Shown here: in pieces, positions 15,609-34,840 of the stretch
How positions within the stretch are numbered: position 1 is the first letter of the stretch
Layout: each line of letters starts with the position of its first letter
Source: Escherichia coli
GTDB lineage: Bacteria > Pseudomonadota > Gammaproteobacteria > Enterobacterales > Enterobacteriaceae
Length of the DNA: 64,000 nt
Direction: 5' to 3' (one strand)
Assembly: GCF_045037415.1 (NCBI RefSeq)
Contig: NZ_CP173438.1
Notes under the pieces: model-generated
What the model was told of the DNA's origin: nothing
What the model saw: the letters and a program-made list of their open reading frames with translations, nothing else
The model's database searches: none
Program-made: the position numbers and the translations under genes

Positions 15609-17090
15609 TCAGTTACGGAAAGGGTTATGACCGTTACTGGTGGTAGTGCGTGCGGATGTTTGCTGAACGACTGGTGCCGGGCTATCAGGCGCATAACCAT
15701 CAGCAATAGCATTCTGTTCCGGCGTTTGCGGGGCAACGTTTTCCGGATTAGTGGAAACCGGTTTGCTCAGCGCATTGTTCAGTGCCAGCAGATCCTGCTC
15801 GTTCAACGTACCCAGAGCTGACTTAATATTCAACTGGTTAATCAGGTAGTTATAACGCGCATTTGCCAGCTCTTGCTTAGCGTTGTACAGCGTGGTGGTC
15901 GCATCCAACACATCAACAATGGTACGCGTACCGACCGAGTAACCCGCCTCCATCGCGTCTAATGAGCTTTGAGCGGAAACTACGGCTTGTTTGTAGGCGT
16001 TAATGCTACTGATAGAAGCATTAATGTTGTTGAAGGAGGAACGTACGGTTTGTACGACGCTACGATGCGCGCTTTCCAGTTGCTCGCTGGCACCAACAAA
16101 GTTGTACTGGGCCTGTTTCACCTGCGAGTTAACCATTCCGCCCTGATAAATCGGCAGCGAGAAGCTCAGGCCAACTTTGTTCTGGCCCATATTGCTATCG
16201 TCATACTGGGTACCAGCGGCACCACGGGTTTTCGAACCGCTATAAGAGGTGTCAGAAATCCCGGTAGAAGCCGTTAAATCCAGAGTCGGTAAGTGACCAT
16301 CCTGCGCCTGGCGAATTTGCTCGCGCGCCAGGTCCTGGCTCAAACGCGCCTGTAACAGGGACAGGTTGCGTTTTTCGGCTTCTTTCAGCAGCGTGTTAAC
16401 CGGCTGTGGTTTGTCGGTTTTAAAGTTTTCGACATTCAGCGCCGCCAGTTCCGGATAGTAGTTACCGGTGATCTGGCGCAGCTGCTCTACCGCGTTATCA
16501 AGGTTATTACGTGCGGTCACTTCGTTCGCCAGCACGGTATCGTACTGTGCGCGGGCGTTCTGCACGTCGGTGATCGCTACCAGGCCCACGTTAAAACGTT
16601 GGGTGGTTTGATCTAATTGACGGTAGATCGCTTCTTTTTGCGCCTGTGTATAGGAAAGAACGTCAATCGCATTCAACACGTTGAAATAAGCGGTCGCGGT
16701 GTTGAGGATCAAGGTTTGTTGATCGGTCTGATACGTGACGTCCTGAATCCCAGCTGCTTTTTCCTGCAGCGTTAACGCACGCCATTTCGACATATCAAAA
16801 ATGGATTGAGTTAACTGCAGGGACGCACTGGTCGCGTTAGAGTTGATGCCGTTCGCGTCGCGGTAGCCGTTGCTATAGGTGTAATCTGCACCTAAACCTA
16901 GCTGTGGCAGTAATGGACTGCGCGCTTCATTAATTTTTTCAAAGGCAGCATCACGATCGGCGGCAGACTTACGCAATTCCGGGTTACTAAGGCGTGCTTG
17001 CTGATAAACTTGCATCAGGTTCTCGGCCTGGCTCAACGAACTGAACCCAGAGAGGCTCAGGCCGATAAGAATGGGGAGCAATTTCTTCAT
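15609..17090 (-). CDS. tolC: Outer membrane channel TolC, 493 aa
   Basis: ORF 15609..17129; start at MKKLLPILIGLSLSGFSSLSQAENLMQVYQQARLSNPELRKS..., a canonical TolC sequence. Confidence 0.95.
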   Translation of the reverse strand: MKKLLPILIGLSLSGFSSLSQAENLMQVYQQARLSNPELRKSAADRDAAFEKINEARSPLLPQLGLGADYTYSNGYRDANGINSNATSASLQLTQSIFDMSKWRALTLQEKAAGIQDVTYQTDQQTLILNTATAYFNVLNAIDVLSYTQAQKEAIYRQLDQTTQRFNVGLVAITDVQNARAQYDTVLANEVTARNNLDNAVEQLRQITGNYYPELAALNVENFKTDKPQPVNTLLKEAEKRNLSLLQARLSQDLAREQIRQAQDGHLPTLDLTASTGISDTSYSGSKTRGAAGTQYDDSNMGQNKVGLSFSLPIYQGGMVNSQVKQAQYNFVGASEQLESAHRSVVQTVRSSFNNINASISSINAYKQAVVSAQSSLDAMEAGYSVGTRTIVDVLDATTTLYNAKQELANARYNYLINQLNIKSALGTLNEQDLLALNNALSKPVSTNPENVAPQTPEQNAIADGYAPDSPAPVVQQTSARTTTSNGHNPFRN

Positions 17091-17294
17091 TTGCATTCCT
17101 TGTGGTGAAGCAGTATTTAGCGCGATCAAACTGTAAAATTATTGCGGATTCTAGCAGAAGCCGCTACCGCAAAAGGTTGGCGTTACGTGCCATAGGGCGT
17201 TAATGTGCCTCAATTTAACACATGACTGCTCAAACGGCAGTCAAACGTCGCTGAAATTCACATTTAATTCACTATTAGTGCCAGGACATTAACA

Positions 17295-25089: not shown

Positions 25090-26069
25090 TGCGCACAGGG
25101 CTGGTTACTGTAATTTTCCTCGCCTTACTGCTGGTGGGATGCGTGGTATATCCAGGGATTGGTGCCCGATTTATTGCACCACAAACGGTGTTGCAGGCAT
25201 TTCTTCATTTTGATCCGCAAAACTTCGATCACAACGTAATTGTAAGACTCCGTTTGCCGCGTTTAGCGGCAGCATTGCTTACCGGTGCTTCTCTTGGTGT
25301 TGCTGGTGCTTTGTTGCAGGCTGTCATTCGTAACCCATTGGGGGAACCACATATTTTAGGCTTAAATGCCGGAGCCGCTCTTGCTGTCGTTGCCGCCAGT
25401 GCGCTTGGACTGGCCTTTCCGGTTGGACGCCCACTGCTGGCATCTACGGGGGGCGCGTTATTGTTCCTGTTGATATTGCTGCTTTCCTCCGCAGGGCGTT
25501 CAGGGTTAACGCCAATGAAAGTTACTTTATGCGGCGTGGCGCTATCGGCGTTCGTGTCCTCAATAACGGCTGCAATCCTGATTCTTGACGAACAAACACT
25601 GCTGGCGATGCGGACATGGCTAGCAGGTGATTTAGCGGGGCAGGATTGGGCGACGCTGGGTACGTCCGCCTGGTTTTCTCTGGGGGGATTTGTGTTAGCC
25701 CTTTACCTTGCACCCTCCCTTAACATGTTGGCACTGGGCGATCGCATGGCGCAGGGGCTGGGCGTCTCTGTACTCCGCACGCGAACATTCACCCTGCTTG
25801 CGATCGCGTTGCTCTGTGGCGCAGCCGTATCGATTGCTGGCCCCATTGGTTTTGTCGGCCTGCTAGTACCGCAGATTGTCCGGCGTCTGGTATCAGCGGA
25901 TCTGCGCGTTCTGCTCCCTCTTTCAGCTTGTGTCGGCGCGCTTTTGTTATTACTGGCAGATATTATTGCCCGGACGCTTTTCACGCCCCATGAGTTAGCG
26001 ACCGGTGTCATGACGGCGTTAGTTGGTGCGCCTGTTTTTGTCATTATGGCGACGAGGATGTTCAAATGA
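25086..26069 (+). CDS. ABC transporter permease (FecCD family), 327 aa
   Basis: Polytopic hydrophobic protein; start overlaps the ATPase stop (translational coupling). Confidence 0.85.
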   Translation: MMRTGLVTVIFLALLLVGCVVYPGIGARFIAPQTVLQAFLHFDPQNFDHNVIVRLRLPRLAAALLTGASLGVAGALLQAVIRNPLGEPHILGLNAGAALAVVAASALGLAFPVGRPLLASTGGALLFLLILLLSSAGRSGLTPMKVTLCGVALSAFVSSITAAILILDEQTLLAMRTWLAGDLAGQDWATLGTSAWFSLGGFVLALYLAPSLNMLALGDRMAQGLGVSVLRTRTFTLLAIALLCGAAVSIAGPIGFVGLLVPQIVRRLVSADLRVLLPLSACVGALLLLLADIIARTLFTPHELATGVMTALVGAPVFVIMATRMFK

Positions 26070-27115
26070 GTCGGATAATGAACGTCGGGCTACGCCCACT
26101 ACGTGTTGGTAAGTTTTCGACACTGGTGCGCCCTAAAAATCTGCTGTTGCTTGGTGGGCTGTTCCTGCTTGCGGTTGGAATACTGATATTCGGTCTGATG
26201 CAGGGTTCTTTCTCTGTTCCGGCATCGGAAGTAGGACGAGCGTTGTTTGCTCCAGAAAACGTAAGCACAGACGCACGTTATATTGTGCAGGATATTCGCT
26301 TGCCGAGAGTCATCATGGCATTGCTATGCGGGGCCATGTTAGGTATGGCAGGGGCCGCAATGCAATCCATTGCACGTAACGGCCTTGCCGATCCTGGTTT
26401 AATCGGCGTCAAAGAAGGATGTAGCGTGGCTGTGCTGTGGCTGATTTTCCAGTTTCCAATGCTGGGAATGTTCTGGCGTCCAGTGGCTGGTCTTGCTGGT
26501 GGCCTGTTGGTGGCTTTAATCGTGATTTTTTGTGCGCGCGATATTTCCCGCCCGCGATTTGTTCTGATTGGTATTGGTGTTTCCTGGTTTTTCGCCGCCG
26601 GTATCGGTGTATTTATGACCACTGCAGATGTTCGAGATGTACAAACTGCATTGATGTGGTTATCGGGAAGCCTGCATGCAGCTAACTGGATGTTAGTCGG
26701 TATTTCAGCCTGTTGGATGTTGCCAGCCGCTCTTTTATTGCTGTTCACCGCCAGGACTGCGGATATCGCTCTGCTTGGTCATCAGGTTGCAACCGGGTTA
26801 GGGGTGAATAGTTCTCGTCTGGCGTTGTTACGTGTCGCCGCACCCATAATCCTGACAGCCGTCTGCGTTTCGTGTGTTGGTAACATCGGTTTTGTCGGAT
26901 TGATAGCACCCCATATATCACGTTTTATTCTACGTGGCGGGCAGACGACATTACTGCTGGGGAGCGCGGTATCGGGGGCGTTGTTAGTTATTCTGGCGGA
27001 TAGCATTGGTCGTTTGGCTTTTTTGCCTTTGCAACTGCCTGCCGGAATCATTATCTCACTGATTGGTGGACCATTTTTTTTACTACTGCTCTGGCAGCGC
27101 AGGAACAGTTTTTAA
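26066..27115 (+). CDS. ABC transporter permease (FecCD family), 349 aa
   Basis: Second FecCD-type permease; start overlaps the preceding stop. Confidence 0.85.
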   Translation: MSRIMNVGLRPLRVGKFSTLVRPKNLLLLGGLFLLAVGILIFGLMQGSFSVPASEVGRALFAPENVSTDARYIVQDIRLPRVIMALLCGAMLGMAGAAMQSIARNGLADPGLIGVKEGCSVAVLWLIFQFPMLGMFWRPVAGLAGGLLVALIVIFCARDISRPRFVLIGIGVSWFFAAGIGVFMTTADVRDVQTALMWLSGSLHAANWMLVGISACWMLPAALLLLFTARTADIALLGHQVATGLGVNSSRLALLRVAAPIILTAVCVSCVGNIGFVGLIAPHISRFILRGGQTTLLLGSAVSGALLVILADSIGRLAFLPLQLPAGIIISLIGGPFFLLLLWQRRNSF

Positions 27116-27125
27116 CGGGAGTTAT

Positions 27126-28073
27126 ATGCGTTTATTTTTTTCTCTGCTGATACTGTTGTCATTTTTTTCCCGTGCAACAGAACCTGTTCAGGTATTTACT
27201 GATGATTTAGGGCGCAAAGTCACTGTTCCTGCTCATCCAAAGAGAATTGTCTCTTTACACGATCTTGATATCACTATTCCTCTGATTGAGCTCGGTGTAC
27301 CTCCTGTCGCCAGCCACGGGCGAACTCGGCCTGACGGTAGCCATTTCATTCGATCTGGCGCGTTATTGACAGGTGTCGACTTTGATAATTCATCGATCGC
27401 CTTTATTGGTACCGCTGATATTGATATTGAAGCGATTGTGGCGGCAAAGCCTGACTTGATCATCACAGAACCGACCCGTAATACGCCCATTGAACAACTT
27501 GAAAAAATTGCGCCCACGGTGAGCATTGATCATCTCAAAGGGGGCGCGCCAGAAATCTATCGCAAGCTGGCAGAACTTACAGGAACGCAGTCGCAGCTGG
27601 CGATACTTGAACGCCGCTATCAGGCACAAATCAATGCGCTGAAGGCGACGCTGGACAGCCAAAAAATAACGGTATCGGTGATTCAGGCAAACCAGGGAAA
27701 AATTAATGTGATGCATAGCTATCATTCGCTGGGACGGGTATTACGCGATGCTGGTTTTCGTTTTCCGCCGCTGATTGAGAGCATTCCTGAAGGTGGGCGA
27801 ATGGATGTGAGCGCGGAGCGTTTACCTGAACTGGATGCCGATTTTGTTTTTGCAACCTGGCGCGGTGACACCGGTGGTAAACCTCAGGATGAGCTGGCAG
27901 CAATGGAAAAAGTCATGCCGGGATGGTGTCAGTTTCTGACTGCCTGTCGTTCCGGGCGTTATGTGCTGATTTCTCGTGAAGAGGCAATTTCTAACTCCTT
28001 TGCATCTCTGGGGCTGATGGCTGCGCAGATACAATCACAAATTGCAGGGCGACCTCTACCGGAGGCTAAATGA
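27126..28073 (+). CDS. Periplasmic iron-siderophore binding protein (FhuD/FecB-like), about 315 aa
   Basis: ORF 27063..28073; start chosen at the ATG preceded by GGGAG; signal peptide MRLFFSLLILLSFFSRA; class III SBP-like composition. Confidence 0.8.
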   Translation: MRLFFSLLILLSFFSRATEPVQVFTDDLGRKVTVPAHPKRIVSLHDLDITIPLIELGVPPVASHGRTRPDGSHFIRSGALLTGVDFDNSSIAFIGTADIDIEAIVAAKPDLIITEPTRNTPIEQLEKIAPTVSIDHLKGGAPEIYRKLAELTGTQSQLAILERRYQAQINALKATLDSQKITVSVIQANQGKINVMHSYHSLGRVLRDAGFRFPPLIESIPEGGRMDVSAERLPELDADFVFATWRGDTGGKPQDELAAMEKVMPGWCQFLTACRSGRYVLISREEAISNSFASLGLMAAQIQSQIAGRPLPEAK

Positions 28074-28957
28074 TCCAGAAAGATAAAGTGCGGGTTGATA
28101 TTTTTGGTGAGCGTTTTCGCACTCGCGCGAGTCAGTTAACGCCTGGGTTAAGAGTTGTCGCCAGCTACATTAATGAGCATCGTGAAGTGGTACTCGAGCA
28201 AACGGCGATGGAAATTGCGGCCACGTTGAACACTTCCGATGCCACAGTTATCAGGGCTATACAGGCCCTGGGGTTTGCCGGGCTGCGTGATCTGAAACGC
28301 ACTCTGGAACAGTGGCTTGGTCCAGCCCTTAGTTCCAGCGAAAAGATGTCTACGACGGTGAGTAACTTGACGAGCGATGTTAACACCGCAATCGACTTTG
28401 TTCTTGAAGGGCATTTGTATACCTGTAATGTCCTGTCAGAGCCTGAAAACCGCCACGCGCTTGCGCAAGCTGTAGCGTTGTTGGTGCAGGCACGGCAAGT
28501 CGCAATTTTTGGCATTGGCGCTTCGGGTATTCTGGCGGACTATACCGCACGACTATTCAACCGCATAGGTTTGCCTGCCACGGCACTAAACCGTACGGGT
28601 ATTGGCCTTGCCGAGCAACTGATCGCGCTTCAACGTGGCGATGTTCTGATCATGATGGCGCAAAAATCTGCGCACCGGGAAGGGCTGACAACGCTTCGTG
28701 AGGCGAGGCGGCTGGGGATCCCTGTTATTTTGCTGACAAACGCGCTGGATTCACGTTTTAGCAAAGACGCCAGTATCGTGATTCATGTTCCGCGCGGGGA
28801 TGAAAAAGGGAAAACGCCGCTACATGGTACGGTATTGTTGTGTCTGGAAATGATTGTCTGGTCGGTAGCTTCCGCAGTGCCGCAGCGTGCGGTTAAAACC
28901 ATTAAGCGAATTAACGATTTCCATCGAGGACTGAAAACGGGAAGAAAGAATGGCTAA
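28070..28957 (+). CDS. RpiR/MurR-family transcriptional regulator (HTH plus SIS domain; fit-locus FitR-like), 295 aa
   Basis: N-terminal HTH (..EIAATLNTSDATVIRAIQALGF..) and C-terminal SIS-type sugar-phosphate binding region; start overlaps the binding-protein stop. Confidence 0.8.
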   Translation: MIQKDKVRVDIFGERFRTRASQLTPGLRVVASYINEHREVVLEQTAMEIAATLNTSDATVIRAIQALGFAGLRDLKRTLEQWLGPALSSSEKMSTTVSNLTSDVNTAIDFVLEGHLYTCNVLSEPENRHALAQAVALLVQARQVAIFGIGASGILADYTARLFNRIGLPATALNRTGIGLAEQLIALQRGDVLIMMAQKSAHREGLTTLREARRLGIPVILLTNALDSRFSKDASIVIHVPRGDEKGKTPLHGTVLLCLEMIVWSVASAVPQRAVKTIKRINDFHRGLKTGRKNG

Positions 28958-29001: not shown

Positions 29002-29316
29002 TCAAAGCCCCGGCTGCAGGATACGAATATTCATCTCCAGCACGTCACCTTTTACGGCTTCGCTATATGCTTTCATGTGCGGGGTTTGCAGATGCGCTTC
29101 AAGATGCGCGATGCTTTCCCACTGCTCAATCATCACGATAGAATCCGGTGCCATAGACTGGAAACTCACGCCAGCAGCGCAATCCACCATTGGCGCATAG
29201 CCGTGGCAACCTTCTTCTTTCAGTACGGTTGGAACGATTTTAGCAAACTGATCCAACACTGCCTGACGGTGATGTTGACCAGGACGAGTACGAATTTCTG
29301 CGATTACTGTAATCAT
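29002..29316 (-). CDS. ygiN: Quinol monooxygenase YgiN (ABM domain), 104 aa
   Basis: Product MITVIAEIRTRPGQHHRQAVLDQFAKIVPTVLKEEGCHGYAP... recognised as YgiN; operon with mdaB. Confidence 0.9.
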   Translation of the reverse strand: MITVIAEIRTRPGQHHRQAVLDQFAKIVPTVLKEEGCHGYAPMVDCAAGVSFQSMAPDSIVMIEQWESIAHLEAHLQTPHMKAYSEAVKGDVLEMNIRILQPGL

Positions 29317-29346: not shown

Positions 29347-29928
29347 TTAACCAAAAATTTCCACAAGATGCTTGCGATATTCTTCAGTATAGCGGGGAAC
29401 ATCAGGCATTTTTATCACGTCATTAGCGATAAATGTCGGCAGCGGTTCCATGCCAAGGAATTGGTTTGCTTTATGGAACGGCAGGTACACACCGTCAACA
29501 CCAACGCCGTGGAAGAACTGATCTTTTTCGGTGAAGGCTTCCATTGGTGCGTTCCAGGTCAGAGAAAGCATATATTTTTTGCCCTGTACCAGGCCGCCGG
29601 AACCGTATTTTTTTGATGGATCTTTGCGGGTACGACCATCGCTGGCATACAGAGTCCCGTGACCTTCGGTGAATACATCATCAATATATTTTTTCACTGT
29701 CCACGGCGCGCCCATCCACCAGCCAGGCATCTGCCAGATCACCACATCAGCCCAGAGAAAGTTTTGTACTTCCGCTTTGACATCGTAGTCGCTGTCGGCG
29801 CGAACAATGCGGACATCATGCCCGAGGTCGCGCAGTGTGCCATCCGCGACTTCGGTCAGGGTGTCGTTCAGTTGACCATTGGAGTGGGCGAATTTTTTCG
29901 CGCCGTTGATAATCAGGATGTTGCTCAT
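29347..29928 (-). CDS. mdaB: NADPH:quinone oxidoreductase MdaB, 193 aa
   Basis: ORF 29347..30084; start at MSNILIINGAKKFAHSNGQLNDTL... (flavodoxin-like fold). Confidence 0.9.
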   Translation of the reverse strand: MSNILIINGAKKFAHSNGQLNDTLTEVADGTLRDLGHDVRIVRADSDYDVKAEVQNFLWADVVIWQMPGWWMGAPWTVKKYIDDVFTEGHGTLYASDGRTRKDPSKKYGSGGLVQGKKYMLSLTWNAPMEAFTEKDQFFHGVGVDGVYLPFHKANQFLGMEPLPTFIANDVIKMPDVPRYTEEYRKHLVEIFG

Positions 29929-30178
29929 TTTTTTAACCTCAAGGTGAGACGTTTGCCGACTATAGTACGTCACAGAGCGGTACGGTGAAATTAGCAAAAT
30001 GTGCAAAGTCTTTTGCGAATTTAGCAAAAGTCTGATCTTTCTCTGATTCACCGATGCGGGATAAATATTTTCTGAAAATGACAATACTTAAATCAACTTC
30101 CCATAAGCTCCCACAGGAGAGATGTATTATGCAAATGATACAGGAGTTTTTCGGAAAAAATGATTATGGAGAATATAT

Positions 30179-30658
30179 ATGTCAAATATGATATACTTAT
30201 CAATTAAAGGGAAAATACAAGGTTTGATCTCTGAGGGTTGTGGTTCGTATGCATCTATTGGTAATAAATATCAAATAAATCATGTGGATGAAATTTTTGT
30301 TTTACAGTTCGACCATTCTTTAAGTCGAGAGTATAATGTAGTGCATCACCCCATAAAATTTTACAAGCCAATAGATAAATCCTCCCCTTTATTAAATGCC
30401 GCTCTTTCTGAAAATGAAGAGTTATCAGCTGTATTTAATTTTTATAGAATTAATTCTGGCGGTTGTATTGAAAGGTTTTACACAATTGAATTGCAAGGAG
30501 CACATTTATCGAATATTCTGACATGTTATCCACACTCAATTACACATGCGGGTAATCAGCCGGAAGAGGTCATTGTTCTTAATTATAAAAATATAACATG
30601 GAAGCACCATATCGCGAGTACGGAATCATATAGTTGTTGGGAAGAAAGGATTTTTTAA
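30179..30658 (+). CDS. hcp: Orphan Hcp-family protein (type VI secretion tube/cargo-carrier family), 159 aa
   Basis: Product MSNMIYLSIKGKIQG...HHPIKFYKPIDKSSPLLNAAL...FNFYRINSGG...VIVLNYKNITWKHH... follows the conserved Hcp pattern; AT-rich; no other T6SS core genes in the window. Confidence 0.75.
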   Translation: MSNMIYLSIKGKIQGLISEGCGSYASIGNKYQINHVDEIFVLQFDHSLSREYNVVHHPIKFYKPIDKSSPLLNAALSENEELSAVFNFYRINSGGCIERFYTIELQGAHLSNILTCYPHSITHAGNQPEEVIVLNYKNITWKHHIASTESYSCWEERIF

Positions 30659-30660
30659 AT

Positions 30661-31371
30661 ATGAAAAGCGATCTCACTATAAAAAATAGATATTGTACAA
30701 TTCCACAAGCGAAGTTCCGTAAATGGGATGAAATGGACGTTTTACTCTGGAAGTTAGGAAAAAATGATTCGCGTCGCCGTTCAGGAGTATATTATTTAAA
30801 TGCTTATAAAGATGCATATGTACAATATAATAGAGACAAAATAATTAAATATGCATACGCCGCTGGAATTCGTCCAGAGTTACTGGGCGGCGTGGCCTGG
30901 ATTGAGTCAGGAGGTATGCCTGAAAATTATAAGTTTCAGATATATGAAACAAAAAGAATGATCGGATTGTTAGATATGCCTGAAAATAAAACATCATTTG
31001 GCTCAATGGGTATACAAATACGAACCGCAGCGATTACTCTAGGTCTAGACCCTTCAGAATTAACTACCAGAAATCAGTTAGAGTTAGCGACATGCCTAAT
31101 GGAGGATGATTTTACCTTTCAAATTGCTGCTACTTATTTAAGAGATCTTGTTCTTTTTGATTATCCCTCTTCGGCAACACTGTATATGACGAATGAGCAG
31201 TATATTATGGCTGGTATTAGATATAATCGTGGTGTTGAACGAGATTTGGGTTTTTTTATTTGTTTAATTAATAATTTGCCTGCACGTGATACAGATGATT
31301 ATAAATTCATCTCTTATGGTATGAGGTTGTTAGAGATTAGAGAACATATCAAAAAATTGATTAATGAGTAA
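30661..31371 (+). CDS. Putative Hcp-associated effector with lytic-transglycosylase (SLT / lysozyme-like) motifs, 236 aa, no signal peptide
   Basis: ATG preceded by AAGGA, 2 nt after the hcp stop. Ordered motifs: E82-S83 (WIESGG), G117-I-Q-I120 with TAA (SMGIQIRTAA), A157-T-Y-L160 (QIAATYLRDL), Y188-N-R-G191 (GIRYNRG). AT-rich. Confidence 0.6.
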   Translation: MKSDLTIKNRYCTIPQAKFRKWDEMDVLLWKLGKNDSRRRSGVYYLNAYKDAYVQYNRDKIIKYAYAAGIRPELLGGVAWIESGGMPENYKFQIYETKRMIGLLDMPENKTSFGSMGIQIRTAAITLGLDPSELTTRNQLELATCLMEDDFTFQIAATYLRDLVLFDYPSSATLYMTNEQYIMAGIRYNRGVERDLGFFICLINNLPARDTDDYKFISYGMRLLEIREHIKKLINE

Positions 31372-31377
31372 TCAGAT

Positions 31378-31710
31378 ATGTTAAAAAAACAACTACTATC
31401 AATATTTGAAGCACTATTATATATAATGCTTACTTATTGGTTAATAGATTCTTTTTTTGCTTTCAATAAGTATGACTGGATGCTTGAGTCGGGAGACAAT
31501 ATTTGCAGTATACCTTCTGTTTCAGGCGAAGATCGTATATTACAAGCAATGATTGCAGCATTTTTTCTTCTGACACCACTTATTATTCTTATCTTAAGAA
31601 AACTCTTTATGCGGGAAATGTTCGAGTTTTGGCTATATGTATTCTCGCTCGTTATTTGTCTGGGTTGTGGTTGGTGGCTTTTTTGGGGACGGTTTATATT
31701 TTGCTATTAG
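31378..31710 (+). CDS. ygiZ: Small polytopic inner-membrane protein YgiZ, 110 aa; candidate cognate immunity protein
   Basis: Starts 6 nt after the effector stop on the same strand; three predicted TM helices; matches YgiZ in size and in position next to qseC. Confidence 0.7.
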   Translation: MLKKQLLSIFEALLYIMLTYWLIDSFFAFNKYDWMLESGDNICSIPSVSGEDRILQAMIAAFFLLTPLIILILRKLFMREMFEFWLYVFSLVICLGCGWWLFWGRFIFCY

Positions 31711-31755
31711 TAAAGTCTATGAGAGTCGTTTTAACGGCTCTCATAGACAGAGAAG

Positions 31756-33105
31756 TTACCAGCTTACCTTCGCTTCAAATCCACCTTGTTTCGCATTCCC
31801 AAAATCAACATTCATGCCATGCAATTTGGCGATTCGCTGGACAATCGATAGCCCAAGTCCACTGCCGGTAGCGGTTTGTCCGGGTGGGCGATAGAAGCGT
31901 TCGCCAATTCGCGCCAGTGCCTCTGGTGTCACACCAGGGCCGTTATCCCTCACGATGAAATTATCGGCATTCAGCGTGACGTCTACCACGCTACCTTGTG
32001 GACTGTAACGCACGGCGTTATCCAGCAAATTTCGCACCAACAAACTTAGCAATAGCGGTTGTCCGGTGCGTTTGATGCCGTTGGCATTGAGTGTCAGTCG
32101 CACGTCAATGTTCGCCTGCTGCGCCGTGTGGTAAATATCCATCACCGACGATTGCAGGAGATCTTCAAGCGGGATCTCCGCGACGTCCTGAAGGTTATCC
32201 AGTGAGTCCAGCCGCGATAGCGTGAGCAGTTGATCAACCAGACGAGTAGCGCGATCGATCCCGGAATGTAATTGGAGCAGCGCTTTTTTCCGCGCCTGCG
32301 GATCATCGTCAGAGAGCTGAGCAACTTCGGTTTGCACTTTCAGCGCCGTTAACGGGCTACGAAGTTCGTGAGCTGCGTCGGAGGTAAAGCGTCGTTCACG
32401 AACCATCATCGCATGTGTGCGGGCGAACAGTTGATTTAGCGACTCAACCAGTGGGCGCACTTCGCTGGGTACGCCCGTCGCGTTTAGTGGTTTTTCCGAG
32501 TCTGGGTCACGCATACGTAGTGCCAGCGCCAGTTTGTTCAGCGGCGCGAGTTCACGACCCAGTAGCACCATCATGATGATTAACATAATCGGCAGTGCGA
32601 CCAGCCACGGGATCAATTGTCCGGCAACAATCGCCAGCGCCATGTCTTCACGGTATTCCCATTCCTGACCCACAACGATGCGATATTTGCCATCAGGTGA
32701 GGTCATCCAGACAAAACGCCAGGGATCGTCTTCACCGACCAGTTGCCCGTCAGCAAAACCTTCCCGCTGATAGCTATAGGGAATATCTTCTCCGTTATCG
32801 CCATCGTTAAGGACCATTCTGCCGTCGTGGGTAAAGATGGCAAAAGTCAGCGCATCGTCATCAACATGACCGTGTTTTAATTTATTTGGCGTCTGTGCCA
32901 TGCGATCCGCCGCGTTGATTTCGTTGAGATCGAGCGTACTTAACCGTTTGGCAAACAGCATCAGTTGGGTGTCGAACAACTCATCGACGTTATCCGTTGT
33001 TTGTTTCCAGGCGACAAAGCTGGAAAGCAGCCAGGTCACCGAGGCCAGAATTAAAAAGATTAGCGTCAGCCTGACTCGCAGACTAAGACGTTGGGTAAAT
33101 TTCAT
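31756..33105 (-). CDS. qseC: Sensor histidine kinase QseC, 449 aa
   Basis: Two TM segments, HAMP, H-box (..[12 protein letters not shown]..) and HATPase region; overlaps the qseB stop. Confidence 0.9.
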
Positions 33106-33761: not shown

Positions 33762-33912
33762 TTTTTCATCCCTGCGATAACCGTATTTGCTGCCAGTAAA
33801 CCGTGTTGTAACGCGCTCTGTACAGCATTAAATTTTATTTTTTTCCCTTAAGAAGTTGTTAAGGACTATCTTGTTAAATGCTCGGAAACAGACATTAAAG
33901 GGAGTAATAAAC

Positions 33913-34357: not shown

Positions 34358-34840
34358 ATGACAAACCTGACACTGGATGTAAATATTATCGATTTCCCAT
34401 CAATCCCTGTGGCGATGTTGCCGCACCGCTGTAGCCCTGAGTTGCTCAACTACAGCGTGGCGAAATTTATCATGTGGCGTAAAGAGACGGGGCTTTCTCC
34501 TGTTAACCAAAGCCAGACTTTTGGCGTCGCCTGGGACGACCCTGCCACCACCGCACCAGATGCGTTTCGCTTTGATATCTGCGGCAGCGTTAGCGAACCG
34601 ATCCCCGATAATCGTTATGGCGTAAGTAATGGTGAACTTACCGGTGGACGTTATGCTGTGGCCCGCCATGTTGGCGAGCTGGACGATATTTCACACACGA
34701 TATGGGGCATCATTCGCCACTGGCTGCCTGCAAGCGGCGAGAAAATGCGTAAAGCACCGATTCTGTTTCACTACACCAATCTTGCCGAAGGGATGACAGA
34801 GCAGCGACTGGAAATGGATGTTTATGTACCGTTAGCGTGA
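34358..34840 (+). CDS. ygiV: GyrI-like domain protein YgiV, 160 aa
   Basis: 160-aa cytoplasmic protein downstream of ygiW; family and context consistent with YgiV. Confidence 0.8.
   Translation: MTNLTLDVNIIDFPSIPVAMLPHRCSPELLNYSVAKFIMWRKETGLSPVNQSQTFGVAWDDPATTAPDAFRFDICGSVSEPIPDNRYGVSNGELTGGRYAVARHVGELDDISHTIWGIIRHWLPASGEKMRKAPILFHYTNLAEGMTEQRLEMDVYVPLA

Follow-up and report, generated by a model that had tools for sequence, protein, structure and literature searches.

What occupies the 250 bp between the divergent genes mdaB, which encodes an NADPH:quinone oxidoreductase, and hcp, which encodes the tube protein of a type VI secretion system (T6SS), in a 64,000-nt stretch of Escherichia coli DNA (contig NZ_CP173438.1; the whole stretch is called the window here and all positions refer to it)? 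A preliminary description of the interval had noted two direct motif copies flanking an imperfect palindrome, which were taken as a plausible operator for mdaB and/or the hcp cassette, and a 20-codon open reading frame (mini-ORF) overlapping the start of hcp, which was taken as a possible leader peptide or translational coupling device. We consider it about 65% probable that the interval is the junction of two unrelated promoter regions, a marbox promoter of mdaB and the promoter of an inserted cassette, and that the mini-ORF arose by chance. The left 105 bp (29929-30033) would be the ancestral control region of mdaB-ygiN, which lies directly behind the qseC stop codon in most Enterobacteriaceae, and the right 145 bp (30034-30178) would be the left end of the 1.7-kb cassette.

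The boundary between the two parts was defined by comparison of locus forms. Among 5,426 complete E. coli genomes, the mdaB side was found in 5,425, whatever adjoins it. The full hcp cassette was present in 1,261 genomes (23%), the K-12-type form with ygiZ only in 3,026, and a form without the cassette, with qseC next to the mdaB control region, in at least 714, the rest being minor variants. Positions 29929-30033 are identical across the four E. coli architectures, the cassette-free one included. In cassette-free genomes, homology stops at 30033/30034, right after the second repeat copy, and the qseC stop codon follows 5 nt on. The repeats and the palindrome were thereby assigned to the backbone, with the cassette beginning at 30034. 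A family-wide survey with MdaB as query and one genome per species returned 80 Enterobacteriaceae loci, in 76 of which qseC lies directly upstream of mdaB, and we therefore regard the cassette as an insertion and the cassette-free form as the ancestral state of the family. Within this survey the cassette occurred only in Citrobacter werkmanii and a Pseudocitrobacter, and E. whittamii carried ygiZ only. An early reading, in which the cassette was ancestral at this slot, was overturned by the survey. The repeats and the palindrome belong to the ancestral mdaB upstream region and not to the hcp cassette: the block is present and invariant in genomes that lack the cassette and, as it predates the cassette, cannot have evolved as an operator of hcp.

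The repeat elements themselves were confirmed. The direct motif copies ATTAGCAAAAT (29990-30000) and TTTAGCAAAAG (30020-30030) lie 30 bp apart from start to start, and the imperfect palindrome TGCAAAGTCTTTTGCG is found between them at 30002-30017. A repeat search extended the direct repeat to the 13-nt sequence GAA(A/T)TTAGCAAAA (29987-29999 and 30017-30029; 12/13 identical) and returned two overlapping inverted pairs at the same block, AAATTAGCAAAA/TTTTGCGAATTT and AGTCTTTTGCGAA/TTAGCAAAAGTCT. The two sites are the only matches to TTAGCAAAA in the window, a count that is not significant alone because 22 of 100 shuffles reach two or more matches (chance mean 0.94). Shuffling of the 250-bp region yielded a 13-nt direct repeat with at most one mismatch in 2.0%, a 12-nt inverted repeat in 1.2% and both in 0.1% of cases, and the repeat structure of the region is thus beyond chance.

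Conservation of the mdaB upstream region was assessed in an alignment of 132 nt from the window and the 80 species, with consensus fractions calculated from the 76 non-Escherichia species. Read in the sense of mdaB, the region consists of the qseC stop codon, about 5 nt, ATTATTGC, 7 variable nt (N7), GCAAAAGACTTTGCACATTTTGCT(A/C)ATTT(c/t)AC, 17 nt and TAnnAT, and the segment ATTATTGC-N7-GCAAAAGACTTTGCACATTTTGC is 98-99% conserved. The consensus fractions are 0.98 for the left arm of this segment, 0.48 for N7 and 0.99 for the right arm, and 0.63 and 0.68 for the spacer and the 5' untranslated region, respectively. Codon positions 1 and 2 of mdaB reach 0.96 and position 3 reaches 0.75. The 23-nt block (Table 1) is accordingly constrained more strongly than mdaB is at its non-synonymous sites (0.99 vs 0.96) and is among the most strongly conserved non-coding sequences that can be expected between genera. 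Of the proposed operator, the part that stands is a regulatory element of mdaB, the non-coding sequence most conserved at this locus across more than 20 genera. Its assignment to hcp falls with the age of the block, and a two-copy operator is contradicted by the distal TTAGCAAAA, which lies partly in the 7-nt spacer that varies among genera; the direct repeat is for this reason Escherichia-specific.

The mdaB-proximal part of the conserved sequence resembles a class II marbox, that is, a marbox in forward orientation that overlaps the -35 hexamer and is centred between -36 and -55. Bases T1, A2, A5 and T6 of the predicted mdaB -10 hexamer are each at least 90% conserved, and a weak -35 hexamer, TTTCAC (29985-29990), lies 17 bp upstream of it and is overlapped by a marbox-like 20-mer. 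The 15-mer core of the latter, GCACATTTTGCTAAT (29990-30004), takes in the proximal TTAGCAAAA copy together with the left arm of the imperfect palindrome described earlier. Its centre (29997) is at about -42 and falls in the class II range, a position that is relative to the predicted -10 hexamer and start only. The 20-mer has two mismatches to AYnGCACnnWnnRYYAAAYn/AYNGCACNNWNNRYYAAAY (19-mer scan). The core is the sole exact match to GCACNNNTTGCTAA in the window, agrees with the consensus gcactaattgctaaa from chromatin immunoprecipitation sequencing (ChIP-seq) at 11 of 15 positions and has one mismatch to the relaxed form gcannwwntgnnaaa. As a control, the marbox scan recovered ATGGCACGTAACGCCAACC (17175-17193, minus strand, one mismatch) upstream of tolC (15609-17129, minus strand), a classic target of MarA, SoxS and Rob. 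A sigma-70 consensus scan of 29850-30300 returned no promoter-like site on either strand; such a lack of near-consensus promoters on both sides fits activator-dependent promoters, without being positive evidence for them.

Published data on mdaB are consistent with this assignment. The gene is cited as a member of the mar regulon in two papers (PMC2989944, citing Martin and Rosner 2002; PMC6561319). In Salmonella, inactivation of ramA lowered mdaB expression 3.2-fold, which made it the most reduced gene after ramA itself, and the same study lists mdaB together with nfsA, acrAB, yhbW, ybjC and tolC (PMC3139621). The identical 15-mer is given as a computationally predicted MarA site for mdaB in Table S2 of PMC12052159. 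We infer from the sequence that MarA, SoxS or Rob binds at the mdaB marbox and activates in class II fashion. A monomer of MarA, SoxS, Rob or RamA would bind at about -42 and recruit RNA polymerase, and redox or xenobiotic stress would in this way switch on the quinone reductase MdaB; the proximal TTAGCAAAA would then be the downstream half of the marbox, and the palindrome arm would hold its GCAC element. Like the class II marbox promoters of micF, fumC, inaA, nfnB, lpxL P1 and rfaY P1, the mdaB site is asymmetric and about 20 bp long, combines GCAC with TGCTAA in forward orientation and overlaps a poor -35 hexamer at about -42 from the predicted start. MdaB is a detoxifying oxidoreductase whose gene is induced together with nfsA, nfnB, acrAB and tolC. 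The element is thus of a known kind, a probable marbox promoter of a known stress-regulon gene, and in this respect the finding is mostly ordinary.

Several observations weigh against the marbox assignment or limit what it explains. A degenerate 19-mer match with two mismatches is at chance level when taken alone, with 12 found in the scan and 19 expected. PMC12052159 pairs the marbox with a transcription start at 3170500, which after conversion of coordinates lies some 16 bp downstream from the marbox centre and differs from the class II start predicted here; it is the nearest of 28,107 starts and the offsets given as 'relative position' are inconsistent, so that Table S2 supports the prediction of the site only. 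In the Salmonella study of PreA, primer extension could not map the mdaB start. The gene is absent from the text and accessible supplements of a MarA ChIP-seq study in enterotoxigenic E. coli (PMC5684230) and likewise from the accessible parts of a ChIP-seq study on MarA, SoxS, Rob and RamA in Salmonella (PMC10268841), and no binding or start-site experiment on the mdaB promoter was found in the accessible literature. A marbox alone also leaves the invariance of nine further upstream bases (GCAAAAGAC) and of the left arm unexplained. Unlike in class II marboxes, conservation at mdaB runs these 9 bases further upstream and adds a palindrome, and a consensus fraction of 0.99 over 23 nt in more than 20 genera is more than the degenerate marbox consensus requires. 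Constraint of this strength between genera, reaching beyond the marbox, points to an additional function, be it a terminator, a second activator or another factor.

The additional conserved sequence forms the palindrome TTGC-N7-GCAA, and ATTATTGC-N7-GCAAAAGA is present in 63 of the 81 aligned sequences. The distal TTAGCAAAA copy overlaps this palindrome at its left arm and N7, and the TTAG part of the copy is not conserved outside Escherichia. The palindrome may be a weak terminator of qseC, another marbox-like site or the site of a further factor; a qseBC terminator is the most likely single contributor and is compatible with the other readings. On the terminator reading, the palindrome, with the distal TTAGCAAAA, acts at the RNA level as an intrinsic terminator or insulator of qseBC that blocks run-through into mdaB, and would be a relic in the window, where the cassette now separates it from qseC. 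Its position speaks for such a role, since in cassette-free genomes it follows the qseC stop codon after 5 nt and no other structure is present in the gap of 106-110 bp. Reverse transcription PCR in Salmonella indicated that preB (qseC) and mdaB are not co-transcribed. A consensus scan flagged a terminator-like site at 30010-30030 on the plus strand, and the inverted repeat can fold equally well in the opposite, qseC-sense transcript, with a hairpin minimum free energy (MFE) of -7 kcal/mol in Escherichia and -10 to -11 kcal/mol in Salmonella (z down to -5), and in the window qseC has gained a different, strong hairpin with an 11-bp stem (31715-31748). Folding of all 81 sequences, however, gave a mean MFE of only -5.5 kcal/mol (z -1.2), and most genera fold without these arms. 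The arms are conserved as sequence, without compensatory change and with an A-A mismatch kept in 63 of the 81 sequences; the stem contains 2-3 G-C pairs (7 pairs in the scan), the tract ACTTTGCACATTTTGC downstream of it falls short of a clean U-run, and a search of 29700-30400 against Rfam at a permissive E-value returned no match. The stable G+C-rich hairpin, U-tract and maintained pairing that define an intrinsic terminator were thus not found across the alignment, the structure being adequate only in Escherichia and Salmonella. The terminator explanation appears rather unlikely on balance, and an RNA hairpin as the sole cause of conservation was ruled out by folding and the absence of covariation.

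The two TTAGCAAAA copies could alternatively form a bipartite operator, with one regulator bound to both copies three helical turns apart, either as a second MarA-type monomer at about -63 or as a dimer of the MarR/SlyA type, controlling mdaB and possibly hcp. TTAGCAA resembles what we take to be half of the SlyA palindrome, TTAGCAAGCTAA. The 13-nt repeat (12/13 identical, reached in 2% of shuffles), its 30-bp spacing and the invariance of both copies in all E. coli architectures would suit such an operator, as would the listing of the distal 15-mer GCTAAATTCGCAAAA, which has two mismatches, as a second predicted marbox in Table S2 of PMC12052159 (relaxed search). Outside Escherichia, however, the distal TTAG falls into N7 (0.48) and only GC...GCAAAAGA is conserved; the block is older than the cassette, and a marbox in forward orientation at about -63 departs from the canonical class I arrangement. 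A second marbox, 21 bp upstream of the first one, would be the poorer site. The flanks that are conserved match the consensus positions AYnGC...RYnAAA, but the key A and C of GCAC lie in the variable spacer, and N7 is not enriched for the key marbox bases A3, C4 and T9. We consider the bipartite operator improbable.

Control by the neighbouring response regulator QseB (PreA in Salmonella), with the block as its site and direct activation of mdaB-ygiN, was considered because its genes are adjacent to mdaB in nearly all Enterobacteriaceae and because overexpression of PreA in Salmonella raised mdaB 7-fold on arrays and 32.5-fold in quantitative reverse transcription PCR, from which the authors proposed a PreA site. 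That effect could be indirect, and the region between qseB and ygiW, where the two other promoters activated by PreA lie, shows a sharp conserved footprint, CTTAACAACTTCTTAAG, without counterpart upstream of mdaB. We judge direct control highly improbable, and a QseB site at the mdaB block was rejected because it lacks a CTTAA-N6-CTTAA box. The footprint sequence between qseB and ygiW (33847-33863, minus strand) comprises two CTTAA half-sites spaced 11 bp apart and hardly varies across genera; it is likely the QseB (PreA) box of the divergent qseB/ygiW promoter region. A conserved CTGTACAG follows shortly after it. A Rob-like regulator encoded beside ygiW, as STM3175 is in Salmonella, was rejected as the cause of the conservation, being too sporadic: only the Kluyvera and Yokenella loci have an AraC-type regulator after ygiW, similar to STM3175, which PreA induces about 600-fold, and parC occupies this place in most genera. 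In Escherichia, ygiW is followed only by the 160-aa YgiV (34358-34840 in the window). It is speculative that PreA of Salmonella Typhimurium acts on mdaB indirectly, through an STM3175-like regulator at the marbox. To our knowledge, none of the patterns of CRP, PurR, sigma-54, OxyR, Fur, IHF and CpxR, compared by eye, fits in both sequence and spacing.

On the cassette side of the junction, the region between 30034 and hcp contains an RcsB-type box whose core exactly matches the published wwTTCykA. In K-12, Salscheider et al. 2014 (PMC3950696) found the H-NS-repressed ygiZ promoter to be activated by BglJ-RcsB via a site that was mapped by mutagenesis, has wwTTCykA at its centre and lies 65-68 bp upstream of the start determined by rapid amplification of 5' cDNA ends, and activation is lost on mutation of the box or deletion of rcsB. 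The window and K-12 share 94% identity over 29930-30106, and the RcsB-type box lies inside this shared segment. The bases AAA....TTC.G are invariant in nine cassette or ygiZ-only lineages, Pseudocitrobacter included. A -10-like hexamer follows 55 bp downstream of the TTC core (TATTAT in the window, TAATTT in K-12 and TAAACT in a relative), and the box is centred about 65 bp upstream of the predicted hcp start. On this sequence evidence, the core at 30068-30075 is probably the site at which BglJ-RcsB acts on the cassette/ygiZ promoter. A second core match in K-12 (AATTCTTA) also fits the 65-68 bp rule and counts against this identification, and no clear counterpart of the box was found upstream of hcp in Pectobacterium. 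The cassette would thus carry its own AT-rich promoter, probably silenced by H-NS, with the RcsB-type box and the -10-like TATTAT, and this promoter would be the upstream element that K-12 retains before ygiZ. The two promoters agree in upstream DNA, core and -10-like spacing. They differ in that the promoter here precedes hcp, the gene for a 236-aa protein and ygiZ, and not ygiZ alone as in K-12, and in that the window sequence from about 30107 on, the -10 hexamer included, is not homologous to K-12.

In K-12 DH1, 131 bp without detectable similarity (1403-1533 of the extracted locus) replace the 1,261 bp from 30107 to 31367 that hold hcp and the 236-aa gene. Two further likenesses were seen in the cassette-side region: a direct repeat AAATGAT(A/T)(C/A)(A/T)GGAG at 30133-30146 and 30158-30171 (25 bp apart), the second copy of which holds the hcp Shine-Dalgarno sequence, and a similarity of 74% over 23 nt between 30059-30081 and 30116-30138. 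Both are possibly due to chance in AT-rich DNA.

The mini-ORF is present as described, preceded by AGGAGAG (30115-30121) and running from ATG at 30129 to TGA at 30191. An ORF of 20 codons or more beginning with an ATG in the last 100 nt and crossing the hcp start arose in 17% of shuffles, and in 1.5% when a Shine-Dalgarno-like motif was also required, so that the mini-ORF is unusual only if the ribosome-binding motif is counted. This motif, 9 nt upstream of the ATG, and its preservation together with the ATG in all seven E. coli-type alleles examined are the observations that argue for a translated leader peptide, which would end 10 nt inside hcp and modulate or couple Hcp translation. The ORF itself is not preserved in these alleles. 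The TGA stop is lost by a G-to-C change at 30190 in 637 of the 1,261 cassette genomes (sequence-checked in six alleles), which extends the ORF to 32 codons, and a 1-nt deletion in an A-run causes a frameshift in MS14387. All three substitutions inside the ORF are non-synonymous, and no comparable ORF was found in any of four relatives, Citrobacter-like ones with Hcp proteins 74-76% identical included. As the outgroups have ATT at Hcp codon 4, the stop, and with it the length of 20 codons, is a by-product of a derived Ile-to-Met change at this codon. The predicted promoter spacer contains the Shine-Dalgarno motif of the mini-ORF, whose ATG overlaps the hcp -10 hexamer predicted here; hcp has a well-spaced Shine-Dalgarno sequence of its own, GGAG at 30168-30171, which lies 7 nt upstream of the hcp ATG. 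Leader peptides and upstream ORFs that serve attenuation or coupling are likewise short, have a Shine-Dalgarno sequence and end near the downstream start. Unlike them, however, the mini-ORF is not conserved in length, frame or sequence, is absent in relatives and lies probably outside the transcript, and its downstream gene has a ribosome-binding site of its own. We regard it as a non-functional chance ORF, and a leader peptide or coupling function as very unlikely indeed.

Both halves of the interval are known in kind, a probable marbox promoter beside a probable RcsB-dependent promoter. The analysis mainly clarifies the locus, in that the repeat turns out to be the promoter of a known gene of a stress regulon and the mini-ORF need not be considered further. 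Only two points merit further work, the palindrome with its conservation and the cassette's probable role in T6SS effector-immunity. The 236-aa protein encoded behind hcp had no matches in sequence searches of Pfam, NCBIfam and the PDB, and only fold comparison was informative, which assigned it a lysozyme-like, GH23 lytic-transglycosylase fold. It combines this lysozyme-like fold with a catalytic Glu, is encoded beside hcp and is followed by a small envelope protein, YgiZ (DUF2645). Across four unrelated genomic contexts, ygiZ always stands behind the 236-aa gene, and two Pectobacterium species and a Serratia plasmid carry the triad of hcp, 236-aa gene and DUF2645 gene intact, at unrelated sites. 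The 236-aa protein is a putative Hcp-dependent cell-wall effector, and YgiZ is its putative inner-membrane immunity protein. K-12 keeps both ends of the cassette but has 131 unrelated bases in place of hcp and the 236-aa gene, which suggests that its ygiZ is an orphan immunity gene.

The cassette resembles orphan Hcp-effector-immunity islands (Tse3/Tsi3- or Tge2/Tsi2-type) in combining hcp with genes for a small lysozyme-fold protein and a small membrane protein, in that its three genes move together between unrelated sites, and in being AT-rich and apparently horizontally acquired. Unlike the Tse3/Tsi3- and Tge2/Tsi2-type pairs, the 236-aa protein has no sequence similarity to named effector families. 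The orphan hcp2B operon of avian pathogenic E. coli (PMC5874247) is a different locus, with vgrG2, DUF2169 and xmtU/V. In a literature search DUF2645 was not mentioned, and the papers that mention ygiZ do not concern the T6SS. A more comprehensive reading would combine these elements into an RcsB-dependent, H-NS-silenced promoter of a mobile T6SS module (Hcp, lysozyme-fold effector and YgiZ immunity protein), with K-12 ygiZ as an immunity gene orphaned by the loss of hcp and the toxin; this promoter would abut a 38-bp mdaB element whose distal palindrome binds another factor. We put this forward tentatively, at slightly less than even odds. If true, it would give K-12 ygiZ and DUF2645 a testable function in T6SS immunity, identify the 236-aa family as cell-wall effectors and explain the control of ygiZ by BglJ-RcsB.

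Table 1. Features of the mdaB-qseC locus, with positions in the window.
Feature	Position	Strand	Remarks
ygiN	29002-29316	-	
mdaB, NADPH:quinone oxidoreductase, first gene of mdaB-ygiN	29347-29928	-	ORF list and RefSeq annotation of identical or near-identical loci
mdaB/hcp intergenic region, 250 bp	29929-30178		between divergent genes
Predicted mdaB -10 hexamer TACTAT (TAnnAT in other genera)	29962-29967	-	predicted start near 29955
Marbox-like 20-mer TTTGCACATTTTGCTAATTT	29988-30007	-	forward orientation, overlapping -35; mean consensus fraction 0.95 across genera
23-nt block GCAAAAGACTTTGCACATTTTGC, with perfect small palindrome GCAAA-AGAC-TTTGC	29994-30016	-	mean consensus fraction 0.99
Conserved palindrome (A)TTATTGC-N7-GCAAAAGA	30009-30031	-	in E. 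coli ACTTTTGC-TAAATTC-GCAAAAGA
Inserted cassette	30034-31755	+	own promoter region, hcp, 236-aa gene, ygiZ, terminator shared with qseC
RcsB-type box GGATAAATATTTTCTGAAAATGA	30059-30081	+	core TTTTCTGA at 30068-30075, exact match to published wwTTCykA
Predicted hcp -10 hexamer TATTAT	30125-30130	+	inferred; predicted start near 30137
20-codon mini-ORF, product MQMIQEFFGKNDYGEYICQI	30129-30191	+	judged non-functional
hcp (T6SS tube protein)	30179-30658	+	Pfam T6SS_HCP, E 3.5e-20; TIGR03344, E 5.5e-59; aligned from residue 1
236-aa gene	30661-31371	+	without annotation
ygiZ (DUF2645 inner-membrane protein)	31378-31710	+	Pfam DUF2645, E 6.3e-11
qseC	31756-33105	-	

The segment 29000-32000 is 100% identical to genomes of sequence type 131-type E. 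coli and 99.6% identical to Nissle 1917. Between the convergent genes ygiZ and qseC, the hairpin at 31715-31748 has a perfect 11-bp stem (GTCTATGAGAG...CTCTCATAGAC) and is probably a bidirectional terminator that arrived with the cassette and replaced the earlier termination of qseC. For one of the 1,261 cassette copies, the record reported is that of a plasmid instead of a chromosome. At the opposite flank of mdaB-ygiN, genes for a FecCD-type permease, a periplasmic binding protein and a MurR/RpiR regulator (26066-28957) adjoin ygiN, as in Nissle 1917; in K-12 (DH1) it is parE that adjoins ygiN, and a second variable island is thus present on this side.

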